From the IMG/VR virus record IMGVR_UViG_3300042450_001700: DNA of 64,000 nt. The stretch is one strand, 5' to 3'. A model generated the notes under the pieces. It was not told the DNA's origin and did not search any database. It saw nothing but the letters and a program-made list of their open reading frames with translations. Below are positions 22,016 to 54,876 of the stretch, in pieces (position 1 is the stretch's first letter; every line of letters begins with the position of its first letter). Origin of the DNA: an uncultured virus (IMG/VR IMGVR_UViG_3300042450_001700) (Duplodnaviria > Heunggongvirae > Uroviricota > Caudoviricetes). Made by a program: the position numbers and the translations under genes.

Positions 22016-22017
22016 TT
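21979..22017 (+). terminator. Intrinsic terminator (possibly bidirectional)
   Basis: AGCCCCGC-CTAGC-GCGGGGCT hairpin followed by TTCTGCTTTTT. Confidence 0.8.
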
Positions 22018-29461: not shown

Positions 29462-29632
29462 CCCCAAACCCAAACCCCCCCGAACAAACCCCACCCCCAA
29501 AACACAGGTCAGGAGTTTCAACCCACCACCTGTAGAAACATCGACTACAACAACATTTCGGATATACACAAACCGAACCACCCGGACTCAAAAAGAACCC
29601 ACAAAAAAAGATTGGGAGTTTCAAGTTGTCAA

Positions 29633-29822: not shown

Positions 29823-29825
29823 CCT

Positions 29826-30602: not shown

Positions 30603-30605
30603 CCC

Positions 30606-30646
30606 CAAAAACTAGAACGAGAGCCGACCGTTTTGGTCGGCTCTCG
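30606..30646 (-). terminator. Cassette terminator
   Basis: GAGAGCCGACC-AAAAC-GGTCGGCTCTC hairpin then GTTCTAGTTTTT; repeated at ~31641-31682, 32686-32728 and 33646-33684. Confidence 0.75.
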
Positions 30647-30657
30647 TTCTCGGCTCG

Positions 30658-30984
30658 TCAGTCCTTGAATATTGCTTTTAGCTCGGCAGTGATTGCCCGC
30701 TGAAGCGCTGGAATTTCGCGCACAAGAGCGTTGTACGTTTTCGGCTCAACCGCCAAAGTGTGAGTGCCAACACCTTGAGCGTTGAGAGTGCGAACCCACT
30801 TAGGCGTTCCGGCGTATCCTTCGTCAGTTGTGATGACTTTCGTGCCGTTCTCGTTGTAACCAACGAACACCCGGCGAGGATTTCCATGTACGTTGTTTGT
30901 TGTTGTGTAGTAGCCGATCGAACGGATGTTGAGCAGTAGCTCGTGTGCGGTCATTTGGTTGGCGAGTACTTCGTGGATTGCCAT
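30658..30984 (-). CDS. Cassette gene 1, hypothetical (108 aa)
   Basis: Normal-complexity ORF between the conserved leader and terminator. Confidence 0.75.
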   Translation of the reverse strand: MAIHEVLANQMTAHELLLNIRSIGYYTTTNNVHGNPRRVFVGYNENGTKVITTDEGYAGTPKWVRTLNAQGVGTHTLAVEPKTYNALVREIPALQRAITAELKAIFKD

Positions 30985-31172
30985 GATTTTTCTCTCATTC
31001 CCGAGCGGCTCGTGCCGCTCGTGTTGTTGGTGTGACTACATTCAACCAAAGATTGGAACAGAACGCAATAGCAAAACACCAGATTCTTTTTCTGACAGCG
31101 ATTTAGCCGCTAGAACTAGGGGGTTTTGCCCCAAAAGAAATATTTTGGAATCGCTCCAAAACGGTCGTTTTG
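30985..31172 (-). promoter_or_regulatory. Conserved ~185-bp cassette upstream block (4 copies)
   Basis: Homologous to 31961-32146, 33022-33208 and 33999-34180; includes TTGCGT, GTAGTCACACCAACAACACGAG and a hairpin before GAGAG. Confidence 0.75.
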
Positions 31173-31635
31173 GCGCTCTCGGCTCATGTTGCTCTCGGCT
31201 CTCGTGGTGCCGCTCATGTTGCTCTCGTGCCGCTCTCGCTCTCGGCTCTCGCTTGCCGCTCATGGCGCTCTCGTGTGGTCGGCGCTCGTGGCTCTCGGCT
31301 CGTGGTCGGCGCTCTCACCCAGCAGCGCTCTCGCGCGCTCTCGTGGCTCGTGGTCGGCGCTCGGCTCATGGTCGGCTCGTGCCGCTCTCACCCAGCGCTC
31401 GTGTGGCGCTCGTGTGGTGCCGCTCTCGGCTCGTTCTCTCTCGTGGTCGGCTCTCGTGCCGCTCGTGCCGCTCGTGGCGCTCTCGTGGCTCGTGGTGCCG
31501 CTCTCTCGGCTCTCGGCTCGTGTGCTTGCTCTCGCTCTCTCTCGTGCCGCTCTCGGCTCGTGTGGTGCCGCTCGTGGCTCATGCCGCTCTCGGCTCTCGC
31601 CCAGTCTTGTGTGGCGCTCGTGGCGCTCTCTCGTT
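31173..31635. repeat. Adenine-free low-complexity tract 2
   Basis: Same unit vocabulary as tract 1. Confidence 0.9.
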
Positions 31636-31693
31636 GGATCCAAAAACTAGAACGAGAGCCGACCGTTTTGGTCGGCTCTCGCTCTCGCTCGTT

Positions 31694-31960
31694 CTAGCCT
31701 AGTTGATCCTCTCGTTTTGGCAGTAGTTGGAGTTCTTCCCGATCTCCGGCGAGAGCGTCACAACATTCGCACAAGTTGCGGCTGAATGATCCCGAGAACC
31801 AATCCGAAGCCGGAACCAGATCAAAATCCTTGCTTAGTTCTTCGATCCCTTTTTGGCATGCAATCGAATCGGCTTCGCTCATTCCCGAGTCATCGCCATC
31901 AGCGATCATTTGGAGGCAGTTGAGGCAAACTCGGATGGTGATGATGTCTGACAGCTTCAT
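31694..31960 (-). CDS. Cassette gene 2, acidic Zn-binding-like (88 aa)
   Basis: VCLNC...FS...CECC...GDR motif. Confidence 0.75.
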   Translation of the reverse strand: MKLSDIITIRVCLNCLQMIADGDDSGMSEADSIACQKGIEELSKDFDLVPASDWFSGSFSRNLCECCDALAGDREELQLLPKREDQLG

Positions 31961-32146
31961 TTTTTTCTCTCATTCCCGAGCGGCTCGTGCCGCTCGTGTT
32001 GTTGGTGTGACTACATCAAAGCAAACATTTTGACTATACGCAATAGCAAAATGCGAGATTCTTTTTCTGACCGGGGTTTTGCCGCTAGTTCTAGGGGTTT
32101 TCACGCCAAAAGAAATATTTTGGAATACGTCCAAAACGGACGTTTT

Positions 32147-32685
32147 GCCGCTCTCGGCTCTCTTGTGCCGCTCGTGTTCTCGTGGTTCTCGCTCTCTCGT
32201 TCTCTCGGCTCGTGTGGCGCTCGTGTGGTCGGCTCATGGCGCTCTCGCTCGTGGTTCGTCCTAGTGCCGCTCTCGTGGCTCGTGGCGCTCGTGTGTGGCT
32301 CTCTCGTGGTTCTCGTGGCGCTCTCGTGTGGCGCTCGTTCTCATGCCGCTCTCGTGGCTCTCGTGTGGCTCGTGGTTCGTGCCGCTCGTGGTTCTCGGCT
32401 CTCACCCAGCAGCGCGCTCGTGTGGCTCGTGTGGTGCCGCTCGTGTTCGTTCGTGGTTCGTGGTCGGCGCTCGTGTTCTCTGTTCGCTCTCGTGGCTCGT
32501 GTGGCGCTCTCGTGGCGCTCATGGTGCCGCTCTCGTTCGTGGTCGGCTCATGTGGCTCTCTCGTGGCTCGTGGTTGCTCGTTCGTGGTTGCTCTCGGCTC
32601 ATGGCGCTCTCGTGTTCGTTCGTGCCGCTCTCGGCTCTCTCGTGGCTCTCACCCAGCGCTCGTGGTGCCGCTCTCGGCTCGTGCC
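32147..32685. repeat. Adenine-free low-complexity tract 3
   Basis: Same unit vocabulary. Confidence 0.9.
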
Positions 32686-32736
32686 AAAAACGGCAACAAG
32701 CGCCGACCGTTTTGGTCGGCGCTCGTTGCTCGTTTT

Positions 32737-33021
32737 CTAGAACGCTTGGAACAGAATCCCGTCGCAAAATTCGACTGCAAAAGTCATATCGTTGAGAGCG
32801 TCAAGCGAGTCGAAATTTTCGCCGTAGTTCTCGTTGATCTCTTCCAAGTCTGCCGCAAACATCCATTCTTGATCGAATGCGATTGGATCGAATTCAACCC
32901 CTTGGCCTTCTTCTTCTGCCGCTTCGATAAGCTCAAACAGTGCGTAGGATGCGTTGATCGGCCAGTTGCAAAGTGTGCGCATTGTTTGGGCAAACGTGCA
33001 GGCTGTCAGTAGTTCGTACAT
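32737..33021 (-). CDS. Cassette gene 3, very acidic protein (94 aa)
   Basis: SYALFELIE...EFDPIAFDQEW...LDALNDMT; D/E-rich. Confidence 0.75.
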   Translation of the reverse strand: MYELLTACTFAQTMRTLCNWPINASYALFELIEAAEEEGQGVEFDPIAFDQEWMFAADLEEINENYGENFDSLDALNDMTFAVEFCDGILFQAF

Positions 33022-33208
33022 TTTCTTTTCTCATTTCCCGAGCAGTTGGTGCCGCTCGTGTTGTTGGTGTGACTACATCAAAGCAAAGATTTGAAAGATA
33101 CGCAATAGCAAAACACGAGATTCTTTTTTCGACCGGGGTTTTCGCCCTAGAACTAGCGGGTTTTGCACCAAAAGAAATATTTTGGAATCGCTCCAAAACG
33201 GCAGTTTT

Positions 33209-33645
33209 CGCGCTCTCGCTCGTTCTCTCGTGTTGCTCGTTCTCGGCTCTCGGCTCATGGTTCTCTCGGCTCTCGTGTGGTGCCGCTCTCGCTCTCGGCT
33301 CTCGCTCTCGGCTCGTGTGCCGCTCTCGCCCAGCAGCGCGCTCGTGTGCCGCTCTCGTGTGGTTCGTGGTCGGCTCTCGGCTCTCGCTCATGGTTGCTCT
33401 CGTGTGCCGCTCGTGTTCGTGGCAGATACCCAGCGGCGCGTGCCGCTCTCGTGGCTCGTGTTTGCTCTCGGCTCATGCCGCTCTCGTGGTTGCTCTCTCG
33501 TGGCTCTCTCGGCTCGTGGTTGCTCTCTCGCTCGTGCCGCTCATGGTCGGCTCGTGGTGCCGCTCTCGGCTCTCGTGGTCGGCTCTCGTGCCGCTCTCGT
33601 TCTCGTGGCTCTCCCAGCCGCTCGTGGCGCTCGTGTGGCGCTCGC
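33209..33645. repeat. Adenine-free low-complexity tract 4
   Basis: Same unit vocabulary. Confidence 0.9.
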
Positions 33646-33698
33646 AAAAACGAGAATGAGCGCCGACCTTTTTGGTCGGCGCTCGTGGCTCGTGTGGT

Positions 33699-33998
33699 TC
33701 AGTCGTATTCAACCTCACCCCATTGATTTGTTCGTGAATGACAGAACTCTTCAACATAGTAAGAGTTGAGATCAACGTATTTTGGTGCCGCTTCAGCCGC
33801 TTCAGCCGCTTCAGCGATTTCCATGACTAGCGCCCTAGTCGAAACTGACGGAACCGATTTGCCGCCAGCGTTTTTGGCGATTTCAGTCCACTCAGAATCG
33901 GTCAAGTACTCGGGGTTTTTGCCGATAGTGGCGATTTCTGTCGCCATCTTCTTAGCAAGCTTTGCCCGATTTGCTAGGTGTGCCGGATGTGCTTTCAT
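33699..33998 (-). CDS. Cassette gene 4, HPxHL-family copy 3
   Basis: MKAHPAHLANR...W..IA..AG...PS..T. Confidence 0.75.
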   Translation of the reverse strand: MKAHPAHLANRAKLAKKMATEIATIGKNPEYLTDSEWTEIAKNAGGKSVPSVSTRALVMEIAEAAEAAEAAPKYVDLNSYYVEEFCHSRTNQWGEVEYD

Positions 33999-34180
33999 TC
34001 TGCTCTCTCTTCCCGAGCCGCTCGGCTCGTGTTGTTGGTGTGACTACATCAAAGCAAAGATTCCACACATAAGCAATAGCAAAATGCGAGATTCTTTTTG
34101 GAACAGCGGTTTTACCCCTAGAACTAGGGGGTTTTGCACCAAAAGAAATCTTTTGGAATCAGCCCAAAACGGTCGTTTTG

Positions 34181-34528
34181 GCTCTCGGCTCGCTCTCTCA
34201 TGGTCGGCTCTCGGCTCGTGTTCTCATGGCTCTCTCATGGCGCTCTCATGGTTCTCTCTCTCTTGTGCCGCTCTCGCTCTCTCATGCCGCTCTCGTGGTC
34301 GGCTCGTGGCTCGTGGCGCTCTCTCTTGCTCTCGGCTCTCGTGTGGCGCTCTCGTGGCTCGTGTGGTTGCTCTCTGTTCTCGTGGCGCTCTCTGTTCTCT
34401 CTCGGCTCGTGTTCTCTCTCTCATGGCGCGCTCGTTCTCGTGGTCGGCTCGTGGTCGGCTCGTGGTTGCTCTCGCTCTCTCGCTCTCGGCTCTCTCATGG
34501 TCGGCTCGTGTGGCGCTCTCGGCTCATG
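34181..34528. repeat. Adenine-free low-complexity tract 5
   Basis: Same unit vocabulary. Confidence 0.9.
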
Positions 34529-34614
34529 CAAAACATCTGCCGAACTCGTGACAGAAAACCGCCACTAGCGCGCGCGGTCGATTCCAAAACGACCAACACG
34601 AAAACGCCCGCGAG

Positions 34615-34846
34615 TTATCCCCAACCACACCAACCAGACGAGCCAAAAACAGCCAAAAGTTTTCCACAGGTTTTCCACAGGTTTTCCACAACTTTTTCCA
34701 CAGAACACCCGTTCCCCAAACGAATGTTCGATCAAAGTTATCCACAAGTTATCCACAGGTTTATCCACAGAACACCTGTTCGATCCGGTTATCCCCAGAG
34801 TTATCCACAGGTTTATCCACAGGTTTATCCACAGCCTGTGGATAAC
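34615..34846 (+). repeat. DnaA-box array with LexA-like boxes (right)
   Basis: TTATCCACA x6 plus one inverted copy (34837), TTTTCCACA x4; GAAC-N4-GTTC at 34703 and 34770. Confidence 0.85.
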
Positions 34847-35068
34847 CCAGCCCAGCCCAGCCCAGCCCCAAGCGGGCGGCGGCGGGCGGGCGGCAGCGGC
34901 GGCCCAGCCAGCGCGAGTTTTCCGGGCGGCGGGCGGCGGCGGCCAGCGCGAATTTCCGGGCGGGTGGGCGGCCCAGTCCGGCCCAGTCCGGCCCCGGATA
35001 AACGGCGGCCCAGCCAGCGCGAGTTTTCTAGGGGGCGGCGGGGCGGCGGGCCAGCGCGAATTTTCTAA
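34847..35068. repeat. GC-rich repeat block
   Basis: CCCAG tandem repeats, GGGC/GGC runs and four CCAGCGCGA(G/A)TTT units. Confidence 0.8.
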
Positions 35069-36368: not shown

Positions 36369-36635
36369 ATGGGCAGTTATGGTTTACGGATGGATGAAGA
36401 ATCGTTTGACTACCCTGAAGACCCTTATCAGCTTGATGAGGTAGGTATAGGGACGGTTACGTCTTTAGAGGATGACGGGGTTGGAACCTACTTGTCTGTG
36501 TTGATTTCTGCGCATAACTCTTATGAGGGAGGTGCGTTCCACTTTGTTGTATCTCCTGAAGACGCGTTGAAGGTCGCCGCTTTGATTCTTGACTCTGTTG
36601 TGCTTATAAAGGCTTCTCTGACTGAGACTGAATAA
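36369..36635 (+). CDS. Acidic hypothetical protein (start 36369 or 36390)
   Basis: 3' part of tracked ORF 36279..36635. Confidence 0.55.
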   Translation: MGSYGLRMDEESFDYPEDPYQLDEVGIGTVTSLEDDGVGTYLSVLISAHNSYEGGAFHFVVSPEDALKVAALILDSVVLIKASLTETE

Positions 36636-36637
36636 GC

Positions 36638-36902
36638 GGCTTGGTCCAGTCCCGTCACGGCTGGGCGAAGCCGGTATCGGGTTTCAGTAAATGCGAAAGG
36701 ACCGGAAGTCTGTGCTTCAGTGCTTCGCTCCTGCGGAGCTTCTCTGTCGCTCACTTCTCCGGTCCTTTGTAGCTTGAGCTTCTCTATCCTCGTTCCTACG
36801 GAACTTCAGTGCTTCGCTCAGTTGCTTTGTAGCTAGTGGCTAGGCCGTCCGTTCCCGGTTTCATTCCCGGACTTGACCGCTTTGCGCAGGTACTCGCTAC
36901 CC
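36638..36902 (-). ncRNA. Structured ncRNA candidate F (~265 nt)
   Basis: Class I promoter TTGCGC-N17-TACGGT at 36908-36936; closing stem GGTC-A-AGTCC/GGACT-G-GACC; duplicated internal motifs. Confidence 0.65.
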
Positions 36903-37033
36903 CCATTACCGTATCAGGGTTTACTACAGTGCGCAAGTCAATAACGAAACAATCTCAGATTTCTTTTTGACCACCATCGGGCCACCACCACCAGTTTCCT
37001 GTTTGCGTCCATAGAGAATGTTATTGTTGAAGT

Positions 37034-42555: not shown

Positions 42556-42656
42556 ACCCCTAGTATAGTCATATGAACTACAGAATCAAGTCAATATCAA
42601 ACAAATATCAAGATTTCTTTCAGCACCAAACACCACACAACGGCTACCCTAAACAT

Positions 42657-44228
42657 GTGGAACCACTCGTAGTAATCCCATCGGAACTACTTGCACTCGC
42701 AACAGACCACGAACGCGAGCAATACCGCCTATACCTAATCGACGCAGCAGTCACCACCGACGACTGGGAAACATGGCTACTCGGAATGGCCCCCGGCTAC
42801 GCATCAGCCCCATTCGGTGACCACCACAAACAATTCTGGAACTGGGCATGGGAAGTAGAAACAGGTGAACGACCCCGACCGTTCGTCGCTATCTGGCCCC
42901 GAGGCGGCGCAAAGAGTACCAGCGCCGAGATGTGCGTCGTCGCTCTCGGCGCACGACAGAAACGCCACTACTGCCTATACGTCAGCGAAACACAAGATCA
43001 GGCAGACGACCACGTTGCCAACATCGCATCACTACTCGAAGACACCGAAATCGGATTCGCATACCCCGAACTAGGCGAACGAATGATGGGTAAGTTCGGA
43101 TCAGCAAAAGGTTGGCGGCGCAACCGAATCCGAACCGGAACCGGGTTCACCGTTGACGCTGTAGGACTTGACTCAGCATCACGAGGCATCAAACTCGAAA
43201 ACCTGCGACCCGACCTAATGGTCTTCGATGACATCGACAGCGAATCCGACGGGCCATCAGCCACAGACAAAAAGATCCGAACCATCACCCGCAAACTTCT
43301 CCCAGCGGGATCAAACGCTTGCGCTGTTATCGCCATCCAGAACAAGGTCCACGACAACTCCATCTTCGCACGACTCGCAGACGGACGAGCAGACTTTCTC
43401 CGTGACCGAATTGTGTCCGGGCCAATCCCATCAGTATGGAACCTTGAATGGGTAGAACAAGAAGGCTTGTTCAACATCGTCACAGGGCAAGCGGCATGGG
43501 AAGGCCAGCCACTCGAATCGTCACAAGCGCTCCTCAACGACATCGGACTAACAGCGTTCCTCGCAGAGTGCCAACACGCGACAGTCACGATGACCGGCGG
43601 GATGTTCGACCACATCAACTGGCCGAACCTTCATGTCACCGAAGCAGAACTACCAGTTATGAAACGCGTAGTCGTCTGGTTGGACCCTGCTGTCACCTCA
43701 AACGACCAATCAGACTGCCAAGGCATCCAATGCGATGGGCTGGGTTCCGACGGTTTGATCTACCGTCTTTGGTCATGGGAGGGGCGCACCACACCACTTG
43801 ACGCTGTGATGCGTGGAATCAGAATCGCTCTTCAATGGAACGCCGACACGCTCGGAGTTGAATCCGACCAAGGCGGCGATACATGGCAAACGGTTTACCA
43901 TCAGGCTTGCGAGAACTTGCGTGACGCAGGGGAACTTGAAGGATCAGCACCACGGTTCGCTTCAGCGAAAGCAGGCGCAGGGCATGGATCGAAGATGGCT
44001 CGTGCGCAACGGATGCTTGTCGATTACGAACGGAACCAGATCAGGCATCTCCTTGGCACACACCAAGTGTTAGAACTTGGACTCATGCGTTTCCCTAAGA
44101 TCAAACCATACGATCTTGTTGACGCAGCGTACTGGGCGTGGGCGGACATCTCGAAGAAGACGAACAGGTCGAAGTCTCGTATCGGGTCTGCGGCTAACTC
44201 AACTATCGGTGCGTTCAACTTCAACTAA
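42657..44228 (+). CDS. terL: Terminase large subunit
   Basis: WPRGGAKST Walker A, RPDLMVFDDID Walker B, WLDPA and DLVDA nuclease motifs; probable leaderless GTG 42657. Confidence 0.9.
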   Translation: MEPLVVIPSELLALATDHEREQYRLYLIDAAVTTDDWETWLLGMAPGYASAPFGDHHKQFWNWAWEVETGERPRPFVAIWPRGGAKSTSAEMCVVALGARQKRHYCLYVSETQDQADDHVANIASLLEDTEIGFAYPELGERMMGKFGSAKGWRRNRIRTGTGFTVDAVGLDSASRGIKLENLRPDLMVFDDIDSESDGPSATDKKIRTITRKLLPAGSNACAVIAIQNKVHDNSIFARLADGRADFLRDRIVSGPIPSVWNLEWVEQEGLFNIVTGQAAWEGQPLESSQALLNDIGLTAFLAECQHATVTMTGGMFDHINWPNLHVTEAELPVMKRVVVWLDPAVTSNDQSDCQGIQCDGLGSDGLIYRLWSWEGRTTPLDAVMRGIRIALQWNADTLGVESDQGGDTWQTVYHQACENLRDAGELEGSAPRFASAKAGAGHGSKMARAQRMLVDYERNQIRHLLGTHQVLELGLMRFPKIKPYDLVDAAYWAWADISKKTNRSKSRIGSAANSTIGAFNFN

Positions 44229-44263
44229 AAATGCAAGAAGCCCCTCCGTTGTGGAGGGGCTGA
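44227..44263 (-). terminator. Intrinsic terminator between terL and ncRNA C
   Basis: AGCCCCTCC-N5-GGAGGGGCT hairpin followed by TCTTGCATTTT on the minus strand. Confidence 0.75.
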
Positions 44264-45007
44264 AGCCATCTTGCTGACTAACCGAGAAGGCAATACGTCC
44301 TTCTGTCGGCATCGGTTGATACCGCCAAATTTTTGCACCATTGGGGGTGCCTGCAACCGCCCTTGCAGGTGGGTTCCTATCTTCTGTCACCCGAGGTCTA
44401 CAACCCTTGGAACACCGGAAGATTCGTTCAGCGGCGGGACTTTGTTTCAGGCGATATTCCCTGTGCTGCTTTTTGCCTGTACTGCTTGTTGATCGCAGAA
44501 CCGTTGAGTTAGCAGGAAGAGCGGCGGGAGAGATGCACCAACAACGCGCCCATCTTCGCTTCACATCAGAAGCTCGTTACCTAGCCGGGAGGGGAGAGAT
44601 GCACCAACAACGCTCCACCGGGTAGGGAATGGCTAACTGGCGGGAAGTATATCTTCCCGCTAACTCAACGGTCCTACGAATCAAGTTCTTAGAAGATGCT
44701 CTTGGACCGGCTACTTGCTTTCGTTCTTACTACTCCACGGATTGTGCGCACGCACCGCTTCACCTCAGAACTAGTTGCTTTCACCGTTCTCCGCATTCAC
44801 TCGCGCTATGTCAACATCCATCCACCACCTTCATAAGCACATCTCTGTGTGCCGTAGGGCGCTTCACTTGGCGATCAGCCCGGTACTTCTGCGGTTCCAA
44901 GTTCATCATCTAAGAACTTGATTCCTGTACTTGAGAGTCTTTGGTGTGCGGACCCTAGCCGCCATGCTCCCCGGTCGTTCCGGTTCTTTAGGTTGTATTG
45001 CCTTACC
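44229..45007 (-). ncRNA. Large structured ncRNA candidate C (~780 nt)
   Basis: Promoter TTGACA-N17-TATCTT at 45014-45042; 5'/3' stem 44995-45004/44287-44296; perfect 16-bp stem 44678-44693/44909-44924; stem 44498-44520/44652-44674. Confidence 0.75.
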
Positions 45008-45077
45008 CCCATAAAGATAGTCGATGCGACTACACATGTCAAGTCAATAATCAAGATTGTTTGATATTTCTTTTCGG

Positions 45078-45981
45078 CACCAACCCCAGCCTTCACGACT
45101 GGCACTGAATGACTGGTCAAGCTCCATTGGATGCCACACGCCCATTTCACCGTCAAGCTCAACGGTCCGGTAGGTCAACTTCCGGTGTGGACTCACCCTT
45201 CTGCTCTCCGCCAGTCGGCGGTGTTGCTCAAACTGCACCTGCTTTCTCTAGTTGGAATGATCTAAACGAATGTGTGGGGAATCCGGTTTTCCGGGCTACA
45301 GTCCAGCGGCGGTCTCTCCCTTGCGCACGACACGCGGGCTAGGTGCTTGTCTGCGGAATACCGGCCTAACCGGACTCCCCTTGAATCTTGAGTTGACGCT
45401 TGGATCGTTTGGGAGTGACCCGACGAACTCCGCATATCTCATCAAGATTCAGTACTTGACCGTTTCGCAATGAACAGCATTTCTGCTGTCGCCTAATGGC
45501 CGTCCGGTCAAGATCGCTTGGCATTGAATGCCTTATAGGTTACTCACGCTCCGGGTAATTAGTCCGTTTGATTAGCGTAGGGCGGTATGGATCGGTGTCA
45601 GCTAAAGACTTCAGTGTTTATCACCCTTCCAGTTTCGATCCGCAGCGTTCGAGGAGAACTCGTAAACCCCGGAACCATCTTGGTTTCCGCACTGTCGTAG
45701 CTGCTGTTCAGGTACCTAACTCAGGTTCCTACTGCCAGTCGCCGCTGCCGACAGTTTCCGACTTGCGGACATCTGCTGAACTTTGACTGGTGCTGCTAAT
45801 TGCGTGAGCGACCTATAAGACGCTCATTGCTTTCTTGAGAGCTAAGAGTCTGTTGAAGGTTTGTCACGTTGTTACCGGTTTGGAATGTCCCGTTCTTTGC
45901 GTGGGGGCCTTGCTGATCTCTTAGCCGCTCAAGCTTGTCTCTGTTTTCAAGTTGCTGTTGTGAGGCTGTTGCTCCCCCACA
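45078..45981 (-). ncRNA. Large structured ncRNA candidate D (~900 nt)
   Basis: Promoter TTGCGG-N17-TACTGT at 45988-46016; 5' TGTGTGGGG pairs with 45271-45279; many internal stems; no credible ORF. Confidence 0.65.
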
Positions 45982-46047
45982 CACAAGACAGTAGTCGATA
46001 CGACTACAGTCCGCAAGTCGAAACAGAAGATTGTTTGATATTTCTTT

Positions 46048-46599
46048 TGGTTGGTCAGTGAAACCGATGTTCTGAATAAGAGCTGCAAGTTTCTATCCCT
46101 GTGACGCAACATCGGGCTGCCTTGCTCCCCGACCGAATACGCTTCGGTGATTACGCTCTTGACGACGCTTTCACTTGACTCTGTGTGCCTGTCTGTCTCC
46201 AGACGATTCCACTGACCAACCACTCAAGTTGCTGCGGAGGTGCCGTACTAGGGATGTGTTGGGAGAGCAAGGCTTACGTCTTTCGACTACTTGGTCACCT
46301 CAATCGTCTTGGGTCCGATACCGCAAGTTTCAACTTGAGTCATTCTAGTTACTGTTGAGGAAGCCGTACTGAGGATGTCTTAGGAGAGGAAGGCTTACAC
46401 CCGAGGGCTACTTCTTGCACTTCAATCGTCTTCTGGTATCAAACAGAATCTAACTAGCACTCGCTGTTTCTGTTGCTGAGTGTGCAACCGTCACATTTCC
46501 TTGAGGTGGTGTGTCACCCGGAATCCGCTACACGCTTTGTGCGTCTTGCTGCGATTCGCCCCCGGTTGTGTCTCCGGTTCGTACTGCTCACTTCCTTAT
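46048..46599 (-). ncRNA. Large structured ncRNA candidate E (~550 nt)
   Basis: Class II promoter at 46607-46629; duplicated ~77-nt domain; stem GGTTGGTCAGTG/CACTGACCAACC at the 3' end. Confidence 0.7.
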
Positions 46600-46746
46600 G
46601 TAGATAAAGATACTACAGGTGTCTGACATTATGCGAATCCAAATGGTGTGACTCTTGTCACACGCCAAATCGGAGCCGCCAGCACACCCAGCCGACACGC
46701 GACAAAGGGACCGGAGCTACCCGGTCCCCTCATCACCAACAACAAC

Positions 46747-47736
46747 TCACAAGCCGTTACGAGCAGACTCAGCGAACACCGCCTGAGTCACCTTCTGGTC
46801 ATCAAGGTCAATCGCACCCGACAGGAAGTCAGTCATCGTGCGACCAAGACGAGAAGTTGAACCAGCAGTACCGTTCGCACGGAACGGACGCTCGTGCTGA
46901 CGGTAGGTGTTGAACGCCTGCACAACTCCCCATCCGGTTCCACGGAAGTCACCGACACGCTCATCGTTGCGATAGATGTTGGACACCGACTCCACACGGT
47001 TCTCCCAACGAGTACGAGCAGCCTCGGTTGCGGACTCAGGTGGCATCGGAGCCAAGCGGTTCACGATCCGGTAGAACTCGGTGTCGGTCACCGAAAGGTT
47101 GATTAGCGTGTTGACTTCCTCGTTGAACGACTCAGCCTGCTTCCACATCAGACCGAGAGTGTTGCGAGCGGTCGTGAAGTTCATCGACGAGTTGAGCGTG
47201 TGACGCAACTTGAACACGTTGTCGCTTTTGCGTCGGAGAGCGCCGATCTGGTTTGAGCAGATGAAGCGGAACATTCCCATCCGGTATGAAGTCGCAAGCG
47301 AACCATCGTGCGAGGATGCGAGTGTGAGTGTTGGTGCAACGTCACCCTCACCGGCTTCCAAGCATGGTGCCTGAACCTGAACCCATCCGACCGCACCGTT
47401 CTTCAGCAGGCCCGCACCCGAAACCTGAAGGTCGGTGTCGGACGCATCCAAGAGTGTGAACAGGTTGTCCACGAGTACGTCGCTGAACTGGTGAAGTCCG
47501 TGTGACTTGGACACCGTGTTGAGAACCATGCCCGTGTCGGTTCGGCGGATGGCTTGCTTGTTCTCAAGCGCCACCATCGAATCGGAACCCGAGTCGTGTG
47601 TGTAGAGCGGGGTGTACTCCACAGTGAAGTTGAACAGGTCACGCACCCGCTCAAACGGAACAGGTCCGGCGTGCTTCTCGTTTGCGTGGACGCTTCCACC
47701 ATTGCCGAGGATTGTGATGTCTGTGTTGTTTGCCAT
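46747..47736 (-). CDS. DUF932 family protein
   Basis: AGLLKNG, LASSHDGS, RFICSNQ and RHT motifs; GT.WG..QA...Y..H. Confidence 0.85.
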   Translation of the reverse strand: MANNTDITILGNGGSVHANEKHAGPVPFERVRDLFNFTVEYTPLYTHDSGSDSMVALENKQAIRRTDTGMVLNTVSKSHGLHQFSDVLVDNLFTLLDASDTDLQVSGAGLLKNGAVGWVQVQAPCLEAGEGDVAPTLTLASSHDGSLATSYRMGMFRFICSNQIGALRRKSDNVFKLRHTLNSSMNFTTARNTLGLMWKQAESFNEEVNTLINLSVTDTEFYRIVNRLAPMPPESATEAARTRWENRVESVSNIYRNDERVGDFRGTGWGVVQAFNTYRQHERPFRANGTAGSTSRLGRTMTDFLSGAIDLDDQKVTQAVFAESARNGL

Positions 47737-48245: not shown

Positions 48246-48313
48246 AAAGAAATATCAAACAATCTTGGTTATTGACTTGATAATGTCCCACAGGTGCAGT
48301 AACTTGATCTACA

Positions 48314-48606
48314 TGACATCGACCGAGATCATCCAGACAATCAACAACAACTACTGCAACCGTGCGACCATCGCAGCGGATGCCGCTGCGAACAACACCG
48401 ACGAGGCATTCGCCATCCGAGCGATTGCAACGCGCCGGACAAACGCACAGGAGACAGTGTTCGCACTGTTCATCGCAATGAGCGGCGGAACTTGCACCCG
48501 AGCGATTCACTCGGATCGCATCGACCGGGAGATCGCAGCTTGCGCCGGATTCACGCAAGCGGAGATTGACTTCGCTCGTCGGGCCAACGCCGAGTGCGTC
48601 AACTAA
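48314..48606 (+). CDS. Hypothetical protein (leaderless, MTST start)
   Basis: TGTCCC-N10-TAACTT-N7-ATG. Confidence 0.65.
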
Positions 48607-49688: not shown

Positions 49689-49838
49689 TGGGTGTTGAAC
49701 GGTTGGCTCGTGAGATCGTTGCGAACTCGGATGGCAAGGTGTCGTGGGAGGAAGCTTTGCGTGAAGCGTGGTGGACCACAATGGCAGGCTGGGGCGAGAT
49801 CGAAAACCCTGAACCTGTAGTTGAGGTTGAGGGTTAGG

Positions 49839-50570
49839 GTGAACCACACGACTCATAACATCGACTGCATCAACCTGCCATCACTGGGACTTGAACCAGT
49901 CCAACTTGTTTACGCTGACCCACCGTTCAACACAGGCAGAGACTTCGGAGAATGGGCCGACAACCACTGGGCCACAACGAGCGATTACATCCGGTGGCTT
50001 ACCCCACGCCTTGAAGCGTGTTGGGAGCAGCTTTCGCCTAACGGCAATCTGGTCTTGCATTTGGATTGGCGGACAGCGCACAGAGCGAAGATCGCTTTGG
50101 ACGACATCGCTGGGGAGCAGAACTTCTTGAATGAGATTGTGTGGGCGTACCGTTCTGGCGGTGCGTCGAAGCGGCATCTGTCTAGGAAGCATGACACGTT
50201 GTTGTGGTATGCGAAGGGTGATGGTTACACGTTCAATCCGCAGCGTGTGCCGTATGCGCCGGGGACTGATGTGAGCAGGCCGGGGTTTCATCCTGATGGG
50301 AAGTTGATGACTGATGTGTGGGACATCTCTTTCATTTCGACTAGCTCGCATGAGCGCACTGGGTGGCCTACGCAGAAGCCGGTGACGTTGTTGTCTCGTG
50401 TGGTTGAGTTGTTTAGCAATCGGGGTGATGTTGTGTTGGACCCGTTTTGTGGTTCTGGTACGACTGGGGTTGCGGCGAAGCGGTTGGGGCGTGGTTCGGT
50501 GTTGTTGGATGTGAACCCGGATGCGACTGCGTTGGCGGGGGAGCGTGTTTGGGGTGAAAAAGAAATCTGA
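49839..50570 (+). CDS. N6-adenine/N4-cytosine DNA methyltransferase (beta class)
   Basis: DPPF, PTQKP and VLDPFCGSGTT motifs. Confidence 0.9.
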   Translation: MNHTTHNIDCINLPSLGLEPVQLVYADPPFNTGRDFGEWADNHWATTSDYIRWLTPRLEACWEQLSPNGNLVLHLDWRTAHRAKIALDDIAGEQNFLNEIVWAYRSGGASKRHLSRKHDTLLWYAKGDGYTFNPQRVPYAPGTDVSRPGFHPDGKLMTDVWDISFISTSSHERTGWPTQKPVTLLSRVVELFSNRGDVVLDPFCGSGTTGVAAKRLGRGSVLLDVNPDATALAGERVWGEKEI

Positions 50571-50635
50571 AGAAATGTTCCATATTGGGCATTATTGGTT
50601 TGATAATGTCATACCCATGCTGTAGGGTTATCTAC

Positions 50636-50803
50636 ATGACATCGACCTTCTACACCATCTTCCACAAGCCAACCAACTGCAACGTGCGCTTGACCCACGA
50701 GGTCACCGAGCGAGAGTGGCAAGCAGCTATGGACTGGATGGTCGGTCAGGCCAACCCGGTTCTGTCAGGCAGCGAGTACAGCCCACTCGTCTTCGAGAAA
50801 TAA
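50636..50803 (+). CDS. Hypothetical protein (leaderless, MTST start)
   Basis: TGTCAT-N10-TAGGGT-N7-ATG. Confidence 0.6.
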   Translation: MTSTFYTIFHKPTNCNVRLTHEVTEREWQAAMDWMVGQANPVLSGSEYSPLVFEK

Positions 50804-50829
50804 ACCAACTCACAACAACAGGAGCAGAC

Positions 50830-50994
50830 ATGACAAACGACGAGTTCACCAAAATCGTAGAGAAGGTACAGGCCACACACGCTGCCGACGCAGCAACCTG
50901 CACCGAATGCGAGTCCGTAAAAGGACTTGTTGCTACCACCACGTTCTGCACGATCTGCTTCCTCAAAGCAGTAGAGAAAGAAGACGCACTGTGA
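50830..50994 (+). CDS. Small zinc-finger protein
   Basis: AGGAG SD; CTEC...CTIC. Confidence 0.6.
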   Translation: MTNDEFTKIVEKVQATHAADAATCTECESVKGLVATTTFCTICFLKAVEKEDAL

Positions 50995-51170
50995 ACATCG
51001 AAGCCCTACTCCAAGAAGCAACCAAATCCGGTGAAACCGACATCTGCCCCGACTGCCAATGGGACCGACACCTAGTCCCCGAAACCGGGCGTTGCGTGGA
51101 CTGCGAAATCGCAGCAGAGCAATTCCGCATCATGCAGGCATCGTGTGACGGCTACCAGCCGATCTACTAA
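50991..51170 (+). CDS. Small zinc-finger protein
   Basis: GTGA-coupled; CPDC...CVDC. Confidence 0.6.
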   Translation: MNIEALLQEATKSGETDICPDCQWDRHLVPETGRCVDCEIAAEQFRIMQASCDGYQPIY

Positions 51171-51203
51171 CCACCTACTAATCAAAGTCAAATTAGGAGC
51201 AAC

Positions 51204-51452
51204 ATGACCGCACCAACCTTCACACCGATCAAAGCAACAGGGCAACGCCACGCCACCACCGAACCCCACACATGGTGGAACGCCAACATCGAAAACGGCG
51301 CACGCATCATCATCTTCCCAAGGCCAAGCGGATACCAGATCGCTGTTACCCGACCAGCCGGAGCAGGCCAGTCATACGGCATGTACCCAACACTTGAAGC
51401 CGCCTACCTAGAAGCCTGCGTGATCCACACCGAAATCCTCGCAGACAACTGA
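51204..51452 (+). CDS. Hypothetical protein
   Basis: AGGAG SD. Confidence 0.65.
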   Translation: MTAPTFTPIKATGQRHATTEPHTWWNANIENGARIIIFPRPSGYQIAVTRPAGAGQSYGMYPTLEAAYLEACVIHTEILADN

Positions 51453-51614
51453 GCGGTGACCGGCCCTTACCGGGCAGGGACAGAACCGGCCACCACAACC
51501 AAAACCCGCTTACCCGCCGGTGGACGACCCGCACTTCGCCCAGCAACGGCGCGGGTTTCCAAAACCAGACACCACCAAAACCACCCAAAACAGCCCTAAA
51601 CCAAATAGGAAACC

Positions 51615-52112
51615 CTACTCAAGTTCGGTCGAATCAGCCTCAACAGCACGACGACGAGACTCCAACTTCATAGCCAAACTCTCAATCGCAGACGAGTCAA
51701 CACCTAACGTAACCCGCATATCAACAGGGCCACCGTCAGCGCCAGTAACTTCAATCTTCGATGCGTCCCTACGCCCCCACCGTTCAGGGTTCTTGCGTTC
51801 ACGAATCCATGCGGCGGCTTGCCATTGTCCGTCTTGGGCGGATCTGCGGATGAGGGCTATGTCTGCGACTTCTGCGTCGGCTTCTGCTTTTTCTATTGCG
51901 GCTAAGAATGCTAGGTATTCTGGTGGTGCGTCGGGGTTTTCGGCTTGTTTCAACCAGTTTCGGAGTGTTTGGTTGCTTATGCCTGCGTAGCGGCAGGCTA
52001 CTTCTCGGTAGTTGCCTGCTTGGAGTGCGGTGATTATTTTGTCGCAGCGTTCTTTGTTGAACTTGGTTGGTCTGCCGGGGTGGTCGTATGAGGTTATAGG
52101 GGGCGTTGGCAT
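51615..52112 (-). CDS. terS: Terminase small subunit-like protein
   Basis: GRPTKF...ACRYAGIS..T..NW, WQAAAW..ER..PE.WGR and EVTGADGGP motifs. Confidence 0.75.
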   Translation of the reverse strand: MPTPPITSYDHPGRPTKFNKERCDKIITALQAGNYREVACRYAGISNQTLRNWLKQAENPDAPPEYLAFLAAIEKAEADAEVADIALIRRSAQDGQWQAAAWIRERKNPERWGRRDASKIEVTGADGGPVDMRVTLGVDSSAIESLAMKLESRRRAVEADSTELE

Positions 52113-52585
52113 GTGGGGCAGTTTCCTTGTCCGTGTTCTGTGTTGTCTTTTTCTGGTGGTTGGAAGGCGGCGGGGTTGTCGGTGGTTTGGAGGAGGGCTT
52201 GGAGGTCTTCGGGTGTGAAGCTTGTTGCTTCTAGGAGTTGGGTGTTGTTGTTTGAGATGTTGGTGAGCATTGTTGTGAGTTCTTTGTTGTCCCAGCGGGA
52301 GAGGTCGGAGGTGTGGTTATCGGCTATTGCGAATGCTTGTGCTTCTTCTAGGGTGAGGTTGACTGTGATGGCGGCGATGTGGTCCCAGCCGAGTTGGACG
52401 GCGGCGGCGTGGGTGTGGTTCCCTGCGAGGATTTGTCCGTCTTGGTTTACGACTAACGGTTTGAGTTGCCCGAATTGGGTGAGGCTTGCTTTGATTGCGT
52501 TGACGTTGCCGCGGCGGGGGTTGTGGTGTAGGGGTGTGAGGGTTTCGATTGGGACGAGTAGTTCTTGGAGGTCGTCTGCAATCAT
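52094..52585 (-). CDS. ParB/Srx N-terminal domain protein
   Basis: NPRRG, SL..FGQ.KP, ILAGNHT..AA and ADN motifs. Confidence 0.85.
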   Translation of the reverse strand: MIADDLQELLVPIETLTPLHHNPRRGNVNAIKASLTQFGQLKPLVVNQDGQILAGNHTHAAAVQLGWDHIAAITVNLTLEEAQAFAIADNHTSDLSRWDNKELTTMLTNISNNNTQLLEATSFTPEDLQALLQTTDNPAAFQPPEKDNTEHGQGNCPTCQRPL

Positions 52586-52640
52586 GGTTGTGATTCTACC
52601 ATACGTTTAGGCATTATTTGGGGTATGATCGGTTTTCTAT

Positions 52641-53312
52641 TTGGAGGTTGTTGTGTCGAATGTTGTTCCGCAGTTGCAGGGGTTGTGTGTTCCTGTTGAG
52701 GGGTTGAGAACGATGACTGGTAATCCGCGTCGGGGTGATGTGGATGCGGTGATGCGTTCGTTGGATGCTTTTGGTCAGCGGAAACCGATTGTTGCTCGTG
52801 AGAGTACGGGCGAGGTGATCGCTGGGAACCATACGTTTATGGCGGCGGTGAAGTTGGGTTGGTCTGAGATTGCGGTTGTGTGGGTTGATGATGATGATGC
52901 GACGGCTAAGGCGTTTGCGTTGGCTGATAATCGGACTGCCGAGTTGGGTGGTTATGATGATGAGTTGTTGGCGGGGATGATCGCTGAGGTGATGTCTGCT
53001 GACTTGGGGTTGTTGGCTGCGGCTTCGTATACGGCTGACGATTTGGATGCGTTGTTGGCGGATACTTTGCCTGTTGAGGAGTTGCCGGTTCCTGAGACTC
53101 GTAAGGCCCCGGTGAAGTTGGCTGAACGGTTTGTTGGTTTGCCTGTGAGTGTGTTGAACAGTCGTGAGGGTTGGTGGCAGGATCGGAAACGGGCGTGGAC
53201 TGATCTTGGGATTGAGTCTGAGTTGGGTCGTGATGGTAAACCGTTGACTTGGAATGTTGCTGTGCCGCAGGGTCACGGCCATCAGGCGACGGATATGGTG
53301 CAAAATGGTTGA
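52641..53312 (+). CDS. ParB/Srx domain protein carrying the N-terminal segment of a DNA methyltransferase
   Basis: NPRRG...IAGNHT...LADNRTAE; ends with LAERF..P.SVL..R.GWWQDRKRAW..LGI.SELGR. Confidence 0.8.
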   Translation: MEVVVSNVVPQLQGLCVPVEGLRTMTGNPRRGDVDAVMRSLDAFGQRKPIVARESTGEVIAGNHTFMAAVKLGWSEIAVVWVDDDDATAKAFALADNRTAELGGYDDELLAGMIAEVMSADLGLLAAASYTADDLDALLADTLPVEELPVPETRKAPVKLAERFVGLPVSVLNSREGWWQDRKRAWTDLGIESELGRDGKPLTWNVAVPQGHGHQATDMVQNG

Positions 53313-54876
53313 ACCTGTTGTTGAGGTTGAGGGTTACGGTGAGGGTTCAACTTCTTTGTTTGACCCGGTTTTGTGTGAACTGGTTTATAGGTGGTTTTGT
53401 CCACCGGGCGGTCAGGTGTTGGACCCGTTCGCCGGGGGTTCTGTTCGTGGGGTTGTTGCGTCGAAGTTGGGTCGGGAGTACACGGGGATTGACGTTCGCC
53501 CGGAGCAGGTTGAGGCGAACAGGTTGCAGGGTGAAAGGCTTTGCCGCGGGTTGTCGTTTGTGCCGGATGTCCCTGAGGATCACATGCCTGAGCTGACACC
53601 GGTTGAAACTCATGGTGACATCTGGTTGAAACGTGAGGATCATTATGTTTTTGGTGGGGTGAGGGGTGCGAAAGTTCGGACTTGTATGCTTCTGGTTGAG
53701 CGTGCGCGTGAACAAGGGGTTGGGGTTGTCACGGCTGGGTCACGGCAGTCGCCGCAGGTGAACTTTGTGGCTCAGATTGCAGCGGCGTTGGGTGTGAAGT
53801 GTCGGGCGCATGTGCCTTCTGGCGATTTGACACCGGAGCTTCTTGCGGCTCGTGGCGCTGGTTGCGAGTTGATTCAACATCAGGCGGGGTATAACACGGT
53901 GATCGTTGCGCGTGCGCGTGAGGATGCGTTGCAGTCTGGTTGGGTTGAGATTCCGTATGGGATGGAAGCGCCGGAGGCGGTTGAGTTTACGAAACCGCAG
54001 GTTGCGAATATCCCTGACGGGGTTCAGCGGATTGTGAACAGTGTCGGGTCAGGAATGACTCTTGCGGGCATCCTGTGGGGTCTAGTTGAGTCGGGGAGGG
54101 ATATTCCGGTAGTTGGTGTGTGTGTCGGTCATCCGCCGTTAGAACGCCTTGAGAGGCACGCACCACCGGGTTGGCAGGAAATGGTGACGATTGTGGACCA
54201 CCCGTCCGATTACCACGACGAGGCAGCGGTGACTGTGTTCCGTGGGGTGCAGTTGGACCCGTGGTACGAGGCGAAGTGCATTCCGACTTTGGAACCGGGT
54301 GACTTGTTATGGGTGAGCGCTATCCGACCGTCAGTTGTTCTCGCCGCAGCACCGTTACCCCAGTGGGTTGAGGGTGACGCTTCAGAGGTGGGCGAGTTGT
54401 GTCAAGGTTTAGAAGCCGATTTGTGGTTTTCTTGTCCGCCTTATGGTGATCTTGAAGTGTACTCGGATGATCCGCGTGATCTTTCAACGATGGATTACTC
54501 AACTTTTATTGAGTCATTCCGACAGATTGTTGATACGTCAACAAAACTGTTGAAGGACGACAGGTTCGCTGTTGTTGTTGTCGGTGACTTCCGTGGCCCC
54601 GACGGGAACTACCGCAACTTTGTTTCAGATACGATCAGCGCTTTCCAAGACGCAGGACTCAGCTTGTATAACGAGGCGATCCTTGTAACGAATCTTGCTT
54701 CACTGATTCTGCGTGTCGGTAAACAGTTTGATGTGTCCCGCAAGATGGGCAAGTCGCATCAGAATGTTCTTGTGTTCTTGAAGGGTGACGCACGCGCAGC
54801 GACACGCGCTTGCGGTCCGGTGCAGGCCGGTGATCTGACGGCTGAGGCCACGGAAAGCGTCCAACCGGAATCGTAG
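53305..54876 (+). CDS. DNA methyltransferase with inserted PLP-dependent (fold type II) domain
   Basis: TSLFDPVLCE...VLDPFAGGSVRG; insert LTPVE...LKRED...GAKVR...VGSGMTLAGI...DPWYEAK; then FSCPPY...K.HQNVLVF.KG. Confidence 0.85.
   Translation: MVEPVVEVEGYGEGSTSLFDPVLCELVYRWFCPPGGQVLDPFAGGSVRGVVASKLGREYTGIDVRPEQVEANRLQGERLCRGLSFVPDVPEDHMPELTPVETHGDIWLKREDHYVFGGVRGAKVRTCMLLVERAREQGVGVVTAGSRQSPQVNFVAQIAAALGVKCRAHVPSGDLTPELLAARGAGCELIQHQAGYNTVIVARAREDALQSGWVEIPYGMEAPEAVEFTKPQVANIPDGVQRIVNSVGSGMTLAGILWGLVESGRDIPVVGVCVGHPPLERLERHAPPGWQEMVTIVDHPSDYHDEAAVTVFRGVQLDPWYEAKCIPTLEPGDLLWVSAIRPSVVLAAAPLPQWVEGDASEVGELCQGLEADLWFSCPPYGDLEVYSDDPRDLSTMDYSTFIESFRQIVDTSTKLLKDDRFAVVVVGDFRGPDGNYRNFVSDTISAFQDAGLSLYNEAILVTNLASLILRVGKQFDVSRKMGKSHQNVLVFLKGDARAATRACGPVQAGDLTAEATESVQPES

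Follow-up and report, generated by a model that had tools for sequence, protein, structure and literature searches.

A tandem array of candidate genes for large structured RNAs behind portable promoter cassettes in an uncultured tailed phage

The DNA studied here is a stretch of 64,000 nt from an uncultured virus of the class Caudoviricetes (IMG/VR record IMGVR_UViG_3300042450_001700), referred to throughout as the window. Between its large terminase gene (terL) and a gene of the DUF932 family lie 2518 nt (44229-46746), and an IMG/VR fragment (G001) repeats the region with 100% identity. An earlier examination of the letters, which we call the sequence-only reading, had proposed that 2.4 kb of this stretch is an array of RNA genes assembled from the same promoter cassettes that carry small accessory genes. 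Codon usage, conservation, covariation, modularity and promoter exchange all lend support to this proposal, and we consider it likely that the array comprises three independent genes for large structured non-coding RNAs, carried on the minus strand by portable cassettes and belonging to families outside Rfam. The genes and units of the locus are predicted as follows.

42573-44228, plus strand: terL, large terminase gene (phrog_38, E 4.6e-47), converging on unit 1
44239-45007, minus strand: unit 1 (U1), about 770 nt
45075-45981, minus strand: unit 2 (U2), about 900 nt
46050-46599, minus strand: unit 3 (U3; unit E of the sequence-only reading), about 550 nt
46747-47736, minus strand: DUF932 gene (PF06067, E 1.3e-37), upstream of and co-oriented with U3

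Coding capacity and promoter cassettes of the array

The longest open reading frame (ORF) in the stretch encodes 121 amino acids and overlaps the end of terL; it is followed by ORFs of 100, 95, 94 and 94 amino acids, and none of these five found a match in Pfam or PHROGs. Stop-free runs in the six frames reach at most 116 codons, compared with 439-839 codons in seven coding controls of the same size, and each frame of the minus strand contains 35-41 stops. Across 28 consecutive segments of 180 nt (44191-46621), the longest such run in the 64 kb, a codon-usage score derived from 22 long ORFs of the window falls below threshold. Codon usage, stop-free runs and profile searches thus agree with the earlier claim that the 2.4 kb hold no credible ORF. 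Nor is a protein gene written in an alternative genetic code indicated: reading any one stop through opens no long frame (maximally 197 codons for TAG, 167 for TAA and 158 for TGA).

Searches for known RNA families were equally negative. At gathering thresholds none of the 4227 families of Rfam 15, a set that includes GOLLD, ROOL, OLE, HEARO, raiA, riboswitches, ribozymes, 6S, tmRNA, RNase P and group I and II introns, was matched in the whole window or in seven loci of related phages (79.6 kb). Relaxing the cut-off to E <=10 on 44000-47000 produced four chance-level matches of 12-18.5 bits (thresholds 39-100), none better than E 4, and ARAGORN predicts no tRNA or tmRNA gene in the 64 kb.

The division into three co-oriented minus-strand units, as read earlier, follows two exact copies of a 21-nt A-rich block, AAAGAAATATCAAACAATCTT, which separate the units at 45053-45073 and 46027-46047 (minus strand) and are joined by sigma-70-like promoters. 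A third exact copy lies at 48246 (plus strand) and degenerate copies at 12247 (minus strand) and 26736 (plus strand); five matches with at most three mismatches occur in the window, compared with 0.00 in 100 shuffles. The block heads what we term the class I cassette, in which it is followed by a -35-like hexamer, a 17-nt spacer that includes the palindrome GTAGTCG-N3-CGACTA(C), and a -10-like hexamer. Class I cassettes stand before U1 and U2, and a second type, class II, stands before U3.

45014-45073, minus strand: P1 (class I), with the block at 45053-45073, -35 TTGACA at 45042-45037, palindrome at 45018-45033 and -10 TATCTT at 45019-45014
45988-46047, minus strand: P2 (class I), with the block at 46027-46047, -35-like TTGCGG at 46016-46011, palindrome at 45992-46007 and -10 TACTGT at 45993-45988
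46598-46663, minus strand: P3 (class II), with -10 TATCTT at 46607-46612, TATCTAC then ATA at the predicted +1 (46599), and an upstream hairpin at 46646-46663

P1 (TTGACA-17-TATCTT) agrees with the consensus at 10 of 12 positions, and P2 is kept in four of the relative loci (L026, L027, L031 and L028). The transcription starts predicted by the sequence-only reading, near 45007, 45981 and 46599, each fall 7 nt after a -10-like hexamer (TATCTT, TACTGT and TATCTT, respectively). Its observation that the class II cassette of U3 bears ATA where the protein-coding copies have ATG is also seen directly: the block at 46598-46617 (minus strand) contains TATCTACAT followed by A, whereas two other copies, at 48295-48314 (plus strand) and 17519-17538 (minus strand), contain ATCTACAT followed by G. 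Both ATG-bearing copies open an ORF beginning MTSTE, the ATG lying seven bases after the -10 hexamer; in U3, ATA occupies that position and a stop follows three codons on. A generic promoter scan returned one site in 44000-47000 compared with 1.4 expected, which is not significant; it is the recurrence of the cassette and the comparison with relatives that argue for the promoters.

The same cassettes head two small ORFs with leaderless starts, one at 48.3 kb and one at 17.5 kb, as well as a gene led by a Shine-Dalgarno (SD) sequence (at 27.8 kb). The small genes behind class II cassettes occupy 48246-48603 (plus strand) and 17233-17590 (minus strand), and their mRNAs would be leaderless; since both begin MTSTE, the first codons seem to be part of the cassette. 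The third locus, 27700-28035 (plus strand), shows a class I variant with the GGGGGTAAGGCAAT leader that is also present in U1 and in a further RNA candidate described below (U5), and then an SD-like AAGGAG and an ATG gene. As this leader precedes an SD-led gene, one and the same leader appears to serve both RNA and protein payloads.

Structured domains, modularity and conservation

Searches of IMG/VR with terL and with the DUF932 gene recovered 17 and 8 loci, respectively, from about a dozen contigs, and four motif scans of viral contigs led back to this phage group, adding three contigs to it. The group is strongly mosaic, and in it the units recur as separable modules in varied combinations and places. 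DUF932, U3 and U2 stand together on one strand in five contigs, with their order kept in L027, L031, L028 and L029, and in the L031/L018 and L027/L019 contigs the terL-U1 group lies apart from the DUF932-U3-U2 group. Non-coding-like arrays of 2.3-2.9 kb are found in L021, L027, L028 and L031, that is, in all relatives with enough sequence around DUF932.

The promoters and the bodies of the units part company at the predicted starts. U3 is 96-98% identical in six relative loci of five contigs whose promoter regions differ; in L031, where the promoter region is unrelated, the identity is 98% from position 2 of the unit. Five relative loci (four distinct ones, L018 and L020 being the same in sequence) retain the body of U1 starting at AAAGAACCGG, and in L011, L017 and L019 its class I cassette and leader are replaced by a class II-like version with the body kept from AAAGAACCGG. 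The comparison of cassette content in related phages that the sequence-only reading had put forward hence reveals promoter classes exchanged at the predicted starts and unit bodies retained. Because the boundary of conservation falls at the predicted start, this pattern is the best indirect evidence both for the starts and for a separable promoter and payload.

Within the bodies, where long-range inverted repeats form the closing helices of whole domains, the following domains and hairpins are predicted.

44239-44261, minus strand: U1 3' intrinsic terminator, a 9-bp stem with 7 GC pairs and a T-rich tail
44493-44679, minus strand: U1 variable domain, with a 28-nt closing helix (89% complementary) and two 25-nt direct repeats
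44679-44923, minus strand: U1 core domain, with a 34-nt closing helix and a consensus fold of 72 pairs, 7 of them compensatory
44969-44986, minus strand: U1 5' hairpin, GAACCGG-loop-CCGGGG
45272-45453, minus strand: U2 3' domain, 58 pairs, 10 of them compensatory
45511-45844, minus strand: U2 core domain, 96 pairs in the consensus fold (97.0% of cells paired), 10 of them with double changes
46048-46222, minus strand: U3 3' hairpin domain, with a 19-nt closing helix and no T-run after it, not called as a terminator
46222-46340, minus strand: domain X copy 2, the tandem partner of copy 1, with a GAAA loop
46345-46458, minus strand: domain X copy 1, of a tandem 121-nt duplication with 76% identity
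46560-46580, minus strand: U3 5' hairpin, GAACCGG-loop-CCGGGG

Covariation is clearest in U2, which is 81-97% identical in five relative contigs. The covariation score of its core, 0.163 compared with 0.107 in shuffles, is reached by none of 500 shuffled alignments, and slid controls give 0-3 compensatory pairs. For the 3' domain, too, 0 of 500 shuffles reach the observed score; one 13-bp helix of this domain holds six of the compensatory pairs. In the U1 core all seven double changes stem from L019, a single divergent sequence. The two copies of domain X differ in sequence in their outer and inner helices, both of which pair in either copy, with four compensatory pairs between them. Where copy 2 has a GAAA hairpin in the window, L028 and L029 show a UUCG hairpin whose stem covaries.

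Whole domains are also exchanged. The variable domain of U1 gives way to an unrelated helix-closed replacement in L017 and L019 and is deleted in L018 and L020; in L028 and L029, unrelated helix-closed domains stand where U3 has its 3' hairpin domain. The U1 of L017 includes a helix-closed insert of 216 nt that holds a third version of the 120-nt domain X, a predicted RNA module that is evidently capable of being duplicated or inserted into another RNA. The hairpin GAACCGG-loop-CCGGGG occurs in three copies in the window (U1, U3 and U5) compared with 0.03 expected, roughly 20-40 nt past the predicted starts. The terminator of U1 is the only canonical one in the array and is conserved in L011, L017 and L019.

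Substitutions, counted over the parts of nine loci that could be aligned by blastn (three contigs being counted twice via two loci, and replaced domains excluded), amount to 18.7% per aligned base in terL and 14.1% in DUF932, compared with 5.3% in U1, 7.7% in U2 and 2.4% in U3. In L031 the contrast is found within one locus: U3 and part of U2 are 93.9% identical over 1091 nt, vs 76.6% for terL and 80.8% for DUF932. The most variable codon phase takes a share of 0.70 of the substitutions in terL and 0.67 in DUF932, vs 0.41 in U1, 0.35 in U2, 0.50 in U3 (from 68 substitutions only) and 0.37 in the array as a whole (674 substitutions). The array accumulates substitutions without codon periodicity and is non-coding. 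Indel lengths were also considered as a coding test and rejected, since the placement of gaps by blastn gave terL only gaps that are not multiples of three.

These counts bear on the proposal that it is very small proteins that are conserved in the array, for instance leaderless micro-ORFs at the 5' ends of the units. The phage does use leaderless starts, and U2, were it to start at GTG, would have an open frame of 19 codons that, as read from the alignment, is open in L027 and L028 as well. Against this, no 3-periodic substitution is apparent anywhere in the array, every minus-strand frame is dense in stops, U3 begins with ATA and meets a stop after three codons, and conservation spans the entire 550-900 nt and not short frames. 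We regard conserved micro-ORFs as extremely unlikely.

It could also be argued that the array is selfish or decaying mosaic DNA, namely cassette debris spread by recombination at the promoter blocks and without function for the phage. The genomes of the group are extremely mosaic, shared blocks are found at the module junctions, and the high identity of the units could come from recent exchange. Debris of this kind would, however, hardly be expected to keep its closing helices through compensatory changes and domain-for-domain replacement, to be retained as arrays of similar length in every relative with sufficient DUF932-flanking sequence, or to diverge less than the neighbouring essential genes, and this explanation likewise has a very small probability in our judgement.

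Further RNA candidates resemble the units in their organisation and are listed below.

26803-27205, plus strand: U5 RNA candidate, with a class I cassette and the leader and 5' hairpin of U1
L027 8790-9800 and L021 3060-4010, minus strand: U4, about 650-900 nt, absent from the window, with its own cassette in L027 and L021

The cassette of U5 consists of an A-rich block (26736-26756), TTGACA, the palindrome and TATCTT, after which come approximately 400 nt of predicted RNA, closed by a long G/C helix and followed by a T-run. The fold of U5 has a z-score of -4.81, with 0 of 100 shuffles as stable. L080 carries the candidate at about 96% conservation, a single A-U pair being changed to G-C on both sides; its homology to U1 is limited to about the first 100 nt. 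A 56-nt stretch near the 3' end of U4 is 80-82% identical to positions 533-588 of U1. The RNA candidates in the window total about 2.6 kb of 64 kb. Other stretches of low codon-usage score (14389-15040, 21070-22018, 29100-35000 and 36633-37033) show neither cassette blocks nor the 5' hairpin; the one at 29-35 kb carries many overlapping long ORFs on both strands and yet scores poorly.

Outside this narrow group, none of 50,697 phage records matched the region by blastn. Among cultured phages terL reaches at most about 27% identity by tblastn, and a terL profile run against 185,579 species genomes produced 152 pattern matches, none of them a relative. A metagenome scan found 23 terL relatives, 19 of them at 34-54% identity; in these distant loci blastn detected no unit homologue, and promoter blocks only, in L039. 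A test of gaps between stop-to-stop ORFs on the distant loci was set aside as uninformative at this G+C content. Two side observations concern the relatives themselves. In L031 (7034-8644, plus strand), and likewise in L028, a 536-aa ParB-N plus N6/N4 DNA methylase gene lies between DUF932 and U3. In L011 (6001-7654) the terL match of 1654 nt, from a 97%-identical relative, contains 16 stops in the given frame, which suggests a frameshift or an assembly error.

Strand, transcript ends and mode of action

The promoters and the sole canonical terminator lie on the minus strand. Consensus folds favour that strand for the core of U2 (-100.1 kcal/mol in sense vs -91.6 in antisense, with 10 vs 6 compensatory pairs) and for the core of U1 (-74.5 vs -62.3 kcal/mol). 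In the U2 core alignment 62 of 573 cells are G-U pairs, which on the other strand would be A-C mismatches (a count that leans by its nature to the strand used for predicting the structure), and GNRA tetraloops close three of nine hairpins on the minus strand vs none of nine on the plus strand, against a window-wide background of 14 in 259. Fold z-scores mark U1 and U2 as unusually foldable but were rejected as a strand test because they do not discriminate.

A number of observations weigh against the reading of the array as three separate RNA genes. The z-scores of the minimum free energy on the plus strand (U1 -5.25, U2 -2.5, U3 -0.2) rival those on the minus strand (-3.9, -3.8 and -0.95), and that of U3 is significant on neither; the strand preference of the consensus folds is undecided in two of four alignments. 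All homologues belong to a single narrow group of about a dozen contigs with identities of 74-98%, so that the covariation rests on 5-6 sequences, and the recent exchange considered above could explain part of the high identity in place of selection. The -35 element of P3 is weak in the window; in the relatives, as read from the alignments, TTGCAA or TTGTGA lies at 17-18 nt. A closing helix between the 5' and 3' ends of U1 (44287-44301 with 44990-45004) was not retained as a conserved feature: its 5' arm is missing in relatives with the other promoter class and its 3' arm in L018 and L020. A terminator scan found no canonical terminator between the units, U2 and U4 are fused without an intervening promoter in L031 and L028, and PHROGs names no reverse transcriptase, RNA-processing or RNA-binding protein among the 85 ORFs of the window. 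The sequence-only reading had forecast separate RNAs of approximately 780, 900 and 550 nt, and in this form the forecast is not borne out: because an inter-unit canonical terminator is lacking, read-through or processing is possible, and because of the fusion of U2 and U4 the units need not be separate RNAs.

Seven RNA-library runs from two studies contain 5-10% of the sampled words of the region, and contigs from four runs were placed on it, these being assemblies that reveal presence in RNA libraries but neither transcription nor strand nor ends. Two runs from a single study yield contigs of relatives that cover U3 into U2 at a word depth of 640-700, with 134 other letters in place of 387 as in the L028-type variant. 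The DUF932 gene (520-695) and the replication-initiator gene (362-648) have a depth similar to that of the units, and for this reason DNA carry-over is possible. In the two deep runs the contigs miss most of terL as well as parts of both U1 and U2, which is uninformative given that terL is only 74-78% identical among relatives and the cut-off was 85%. One contig starts 6 nt before 46607, at most a weak hint of a 5' end, and one run has a contig that extends 94 nt beyond the start of U3 on its upstream side.

An alternative that draws on these findings holds that the array is a single early non-coding transcript or leader of about 2.4 kb with internal promoters, acting in cis or serving as a precursor that is processed. 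It would explain why the only canonical terminator follows U1, why U2 can run into U4 promoterless in two relatives, and why the relatives' RNA-library contigs span the U3-U2 junction and, in one case, reach upstream of U3; in L027, moreover, the array is continued in the same direction by the pentapeptide, replication-initiator and helicase genes. Contigs, however, cannot show single transcripts, a full cassette conserved in relatives stands at each unit boundary, the units occur singly and in different orders, and the array ends at a terminator facing terL, such that there is no downstream gene to regulate. A single transcript consequently strikes us as rather unlikely. The same terminator, facing the 3' end of terL, speaks against a cis-regulatory leader or riboswitch. 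An antitoxin RNA of a type III toxin-antitoxin system was also considered and rejected, as the only repeat is the two-copy 121-nt duplication and the neighbours are terL and DUF932.

Some of the evidence could be accommodated by an element acting at the level of DNA, such as an origin, a packaging site, a recombination hot spot or hairpins resembling single-strand promoters. The array adjoins terL and, in relatives, a replication-initiator-like gene and a DnaB-like helicase gene; it contains long inverted repeats and repeated A-rich blocks, and it folds as well on the plus strand by z-score. A DNA element would not be expected to show branched multi-helix structures with compensatory changes, G-U pairs tolerated on one strand of the U2 core, or swaps of GNRA and UUCG loops; nor would it need promoters at the 5' boundaries of the units and a terminator where the array ends, and the units move independently of terL and the replication genes. 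We judge an element of this kind to be very improbable. U1 adjoins terL in seven relative contigs, including ones with DUF932, U3 and U2 elsewhere. Phage phi29 has a packaging RNA, and since U1 travels with terL a similar role was considered for it; it was dropped because five terL relatives (L012, L014, L015, L016 and L022) have no U1 downstream.

Of the 85 likely genes of the window, PHROGs identifies the major head, portal, small terminase, tail, endolysin, SSB, exonuclease and DnaB-like helicase genes as well as a replication initiator, three ParB/DNA-methylase genes and a WhiB-like regulator. The neighbourhood of the array, with DNA methylases, a ParB-methylase, DUF932, a pentapeptide-repeat protein, the replication initiator and the helicase, is an early, accessory region. 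Leaderless starts and -10 hexamers of the TANNNT type are typical of actinobacteria, and together with two genes of the window they point to a host that is probably an actinobacterium.

4768-5019, minus strand: WhiB-like regulator (PF02467, 44.4 bits vs a cut-off of 23.6)
15981-16409, plus strand: Rpf-like transglycosylase domain

Some further features of the window deserve mention. A G/C-rich hairpin with a short T-run (46700-46745, minus strand) lies right after the DUF932 stop; it was not called by the terminator scan, but is probably the terminator of that gene and would insulate U3 from upstream transcription. The gene cluster at 49821-54873 encodes DNA-methylase/ParB-like proteins, including one of 540 aa that joins PALP (PLP-dependent enzyme) and DNA methylase domains. 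Packaging and head genes are scattered (42573-44228, 51618-52112, 10066-12060 and 2347-4338): terL stands alone on the plus strand amid minus-strand early genes, the small terminase lies 7 kb off on the other strand, and the portal and major head genes are 30-40 kb from terL.

Returning to the three RNA genes as the favoured reading, we propose the following mode of action. By sequence and comparison, each unit starts behind a portable cassette made up of a UP-like block rich in A (roughly -60 to -40), a -35 element, a 17-nt spacer and a -10 of the TANNNT type. The palindrome in the class I spacer would let a dimeric repressor shut the copies off, and the class II cassette would place the +1 on the A of ATG, yielding a leaderless mRNA; because the corresponding codon of U3 is ATA, its transcript should be untranslatable from the 5' end. 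Host RNA polymerase would make the RNAs early and abundantly. U3 and U2 may end at long terminal hairpins or be read through to the terminator after U1, which would generate nested, 3'-coterminal RNAs whose long duplexes might allow cutting by a double-strand RNase. The bodies are built of helix-closed domains that are kept by compensatory changes and inserted, deleted or swapped whole, and the units move between related phages as modules.

What the RNAs might do can be approached only by conjecture. Complementary 13-mers without mismatch, counted apart from the units' own helices, number five, about chance level, which offers no antisense targets. The neighbourhood, the repeated domain and analogy alone lead us to the guess of a trans-acting early RNA, in which the RNAs would act in host takeover by holding a host or defence protein via domain X and the 5' hairpin, or as RNA-only particles; this is speculative and in our estimate more unlikely than likely. 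A wider and equally tentative idea, which we would call possible though doubtful, is that the group possesses a toolkit of at least five unrelated modular RNA families (U1-U3 and U5, with U4 in relatives), traded as promoter-plus-RNA cassettes in just the way of small accessory protein genes and functioning as trans-acting RNA machines or decoys in takeover or counter-defence.

Relation to known phage RNAs and to morons

Large structured RNAs that have no protein partner or known function are rare and fall into a handful of classes. Here a single phage would encode three such candidates in a row and one more at another place, none of them in Rfam, with unit boundaries, promoters and domain structure that can be read directly from its relatives. 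In the literature on large structured phage RNAs we found no such array, although a printed description may still exist.

The closest counterparts are GOLLD and ROOL, described as large ornate RNAs of phages and prophages that form RNA cages and have no known function (PMC12286853). The units are like them in being phage-encoded, free of ORFs and longer than 400 nt (PMC12286853), and in having both variable and conserved regions and a predicted multi-helix structure with covariation (20 pairs in U2, and more weakly in the U1 core and domain X). They are unlike them in finding no Rfam match and in their setting, with no tRNA in 64 kb compared with the frequent placement of GOLLD and ROOL near tRNA islands. 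Several unrelated families stand in tandem here, each behind a cassette promoter common to protein genes, and the array is confined to one phage group.

A second relation is to the transcript of Pleft at the right end of the cluster A mycobacteriophages L5, D29 and StarStuff, described as an abundant early non-coding RNA that is toxic to the host, lacks a known function and arises from some 500 bp without ORFs (PMC5712189). The two cases share an actinobacterial host (predicted here from the WhiB-like and Rpf-like proteins), an ORF-free region of at least about 500 bp behind a sigma-70-like promoter (predicted in the array, early in L5 and D29), and the toleration of 1-2-bp indels among relatives (PMC5712189). 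There is no blastn similarity between them, and the RNAs of the array would be larger, three in tandem plus one elsewhere, and are supported by covariation; abundance, stability and toxicity are shown features of the L5/D29 RNA, whereas the array RNAs are predicted from sequence (PMC5712189). A catalogue of structured RNAs from IMG/VR lists covariation-predicted motifs of 30-151 nt vs 400-900 nt for the units, both coming from metagenomic viral contigs (PMC10690425). Six short motifs of U1-U3 are absent from its supplement other than files 1, 2 and 4, in which a sub-domain may be listed.

The arrangement of the units brings to mind a class of protein genes. Phage morons are independent units of promoter, gene and terminator inserted between other genes. 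The units resemble them in having promoters of their own, in being present or absent among close relatives and in lying between functional modules, and differ from them in that the payload would be a structured RNA in place of a protein and in that only one of the three units has a canonical terminator of its own. We hold it quite likely that the array represents new RNA families, comparable in kind to GOLLD and ROOL and unusual in their modular layout. The RNA genes would be handled like protein morons, with portable promoters, promoter swapping at the start site and domain shuffling, which has not been described for the known classes. Should the wider idea of a traded toolkit hold true, these RNAs would be to RNA what phage morons are to protein genes and would extend the range of ornate RNAs past GOLLD and ROOL. 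If expressed as predicted, the units would provide ready constructs of 400-900 nt with defined ends for work on structure and on effects in the host.

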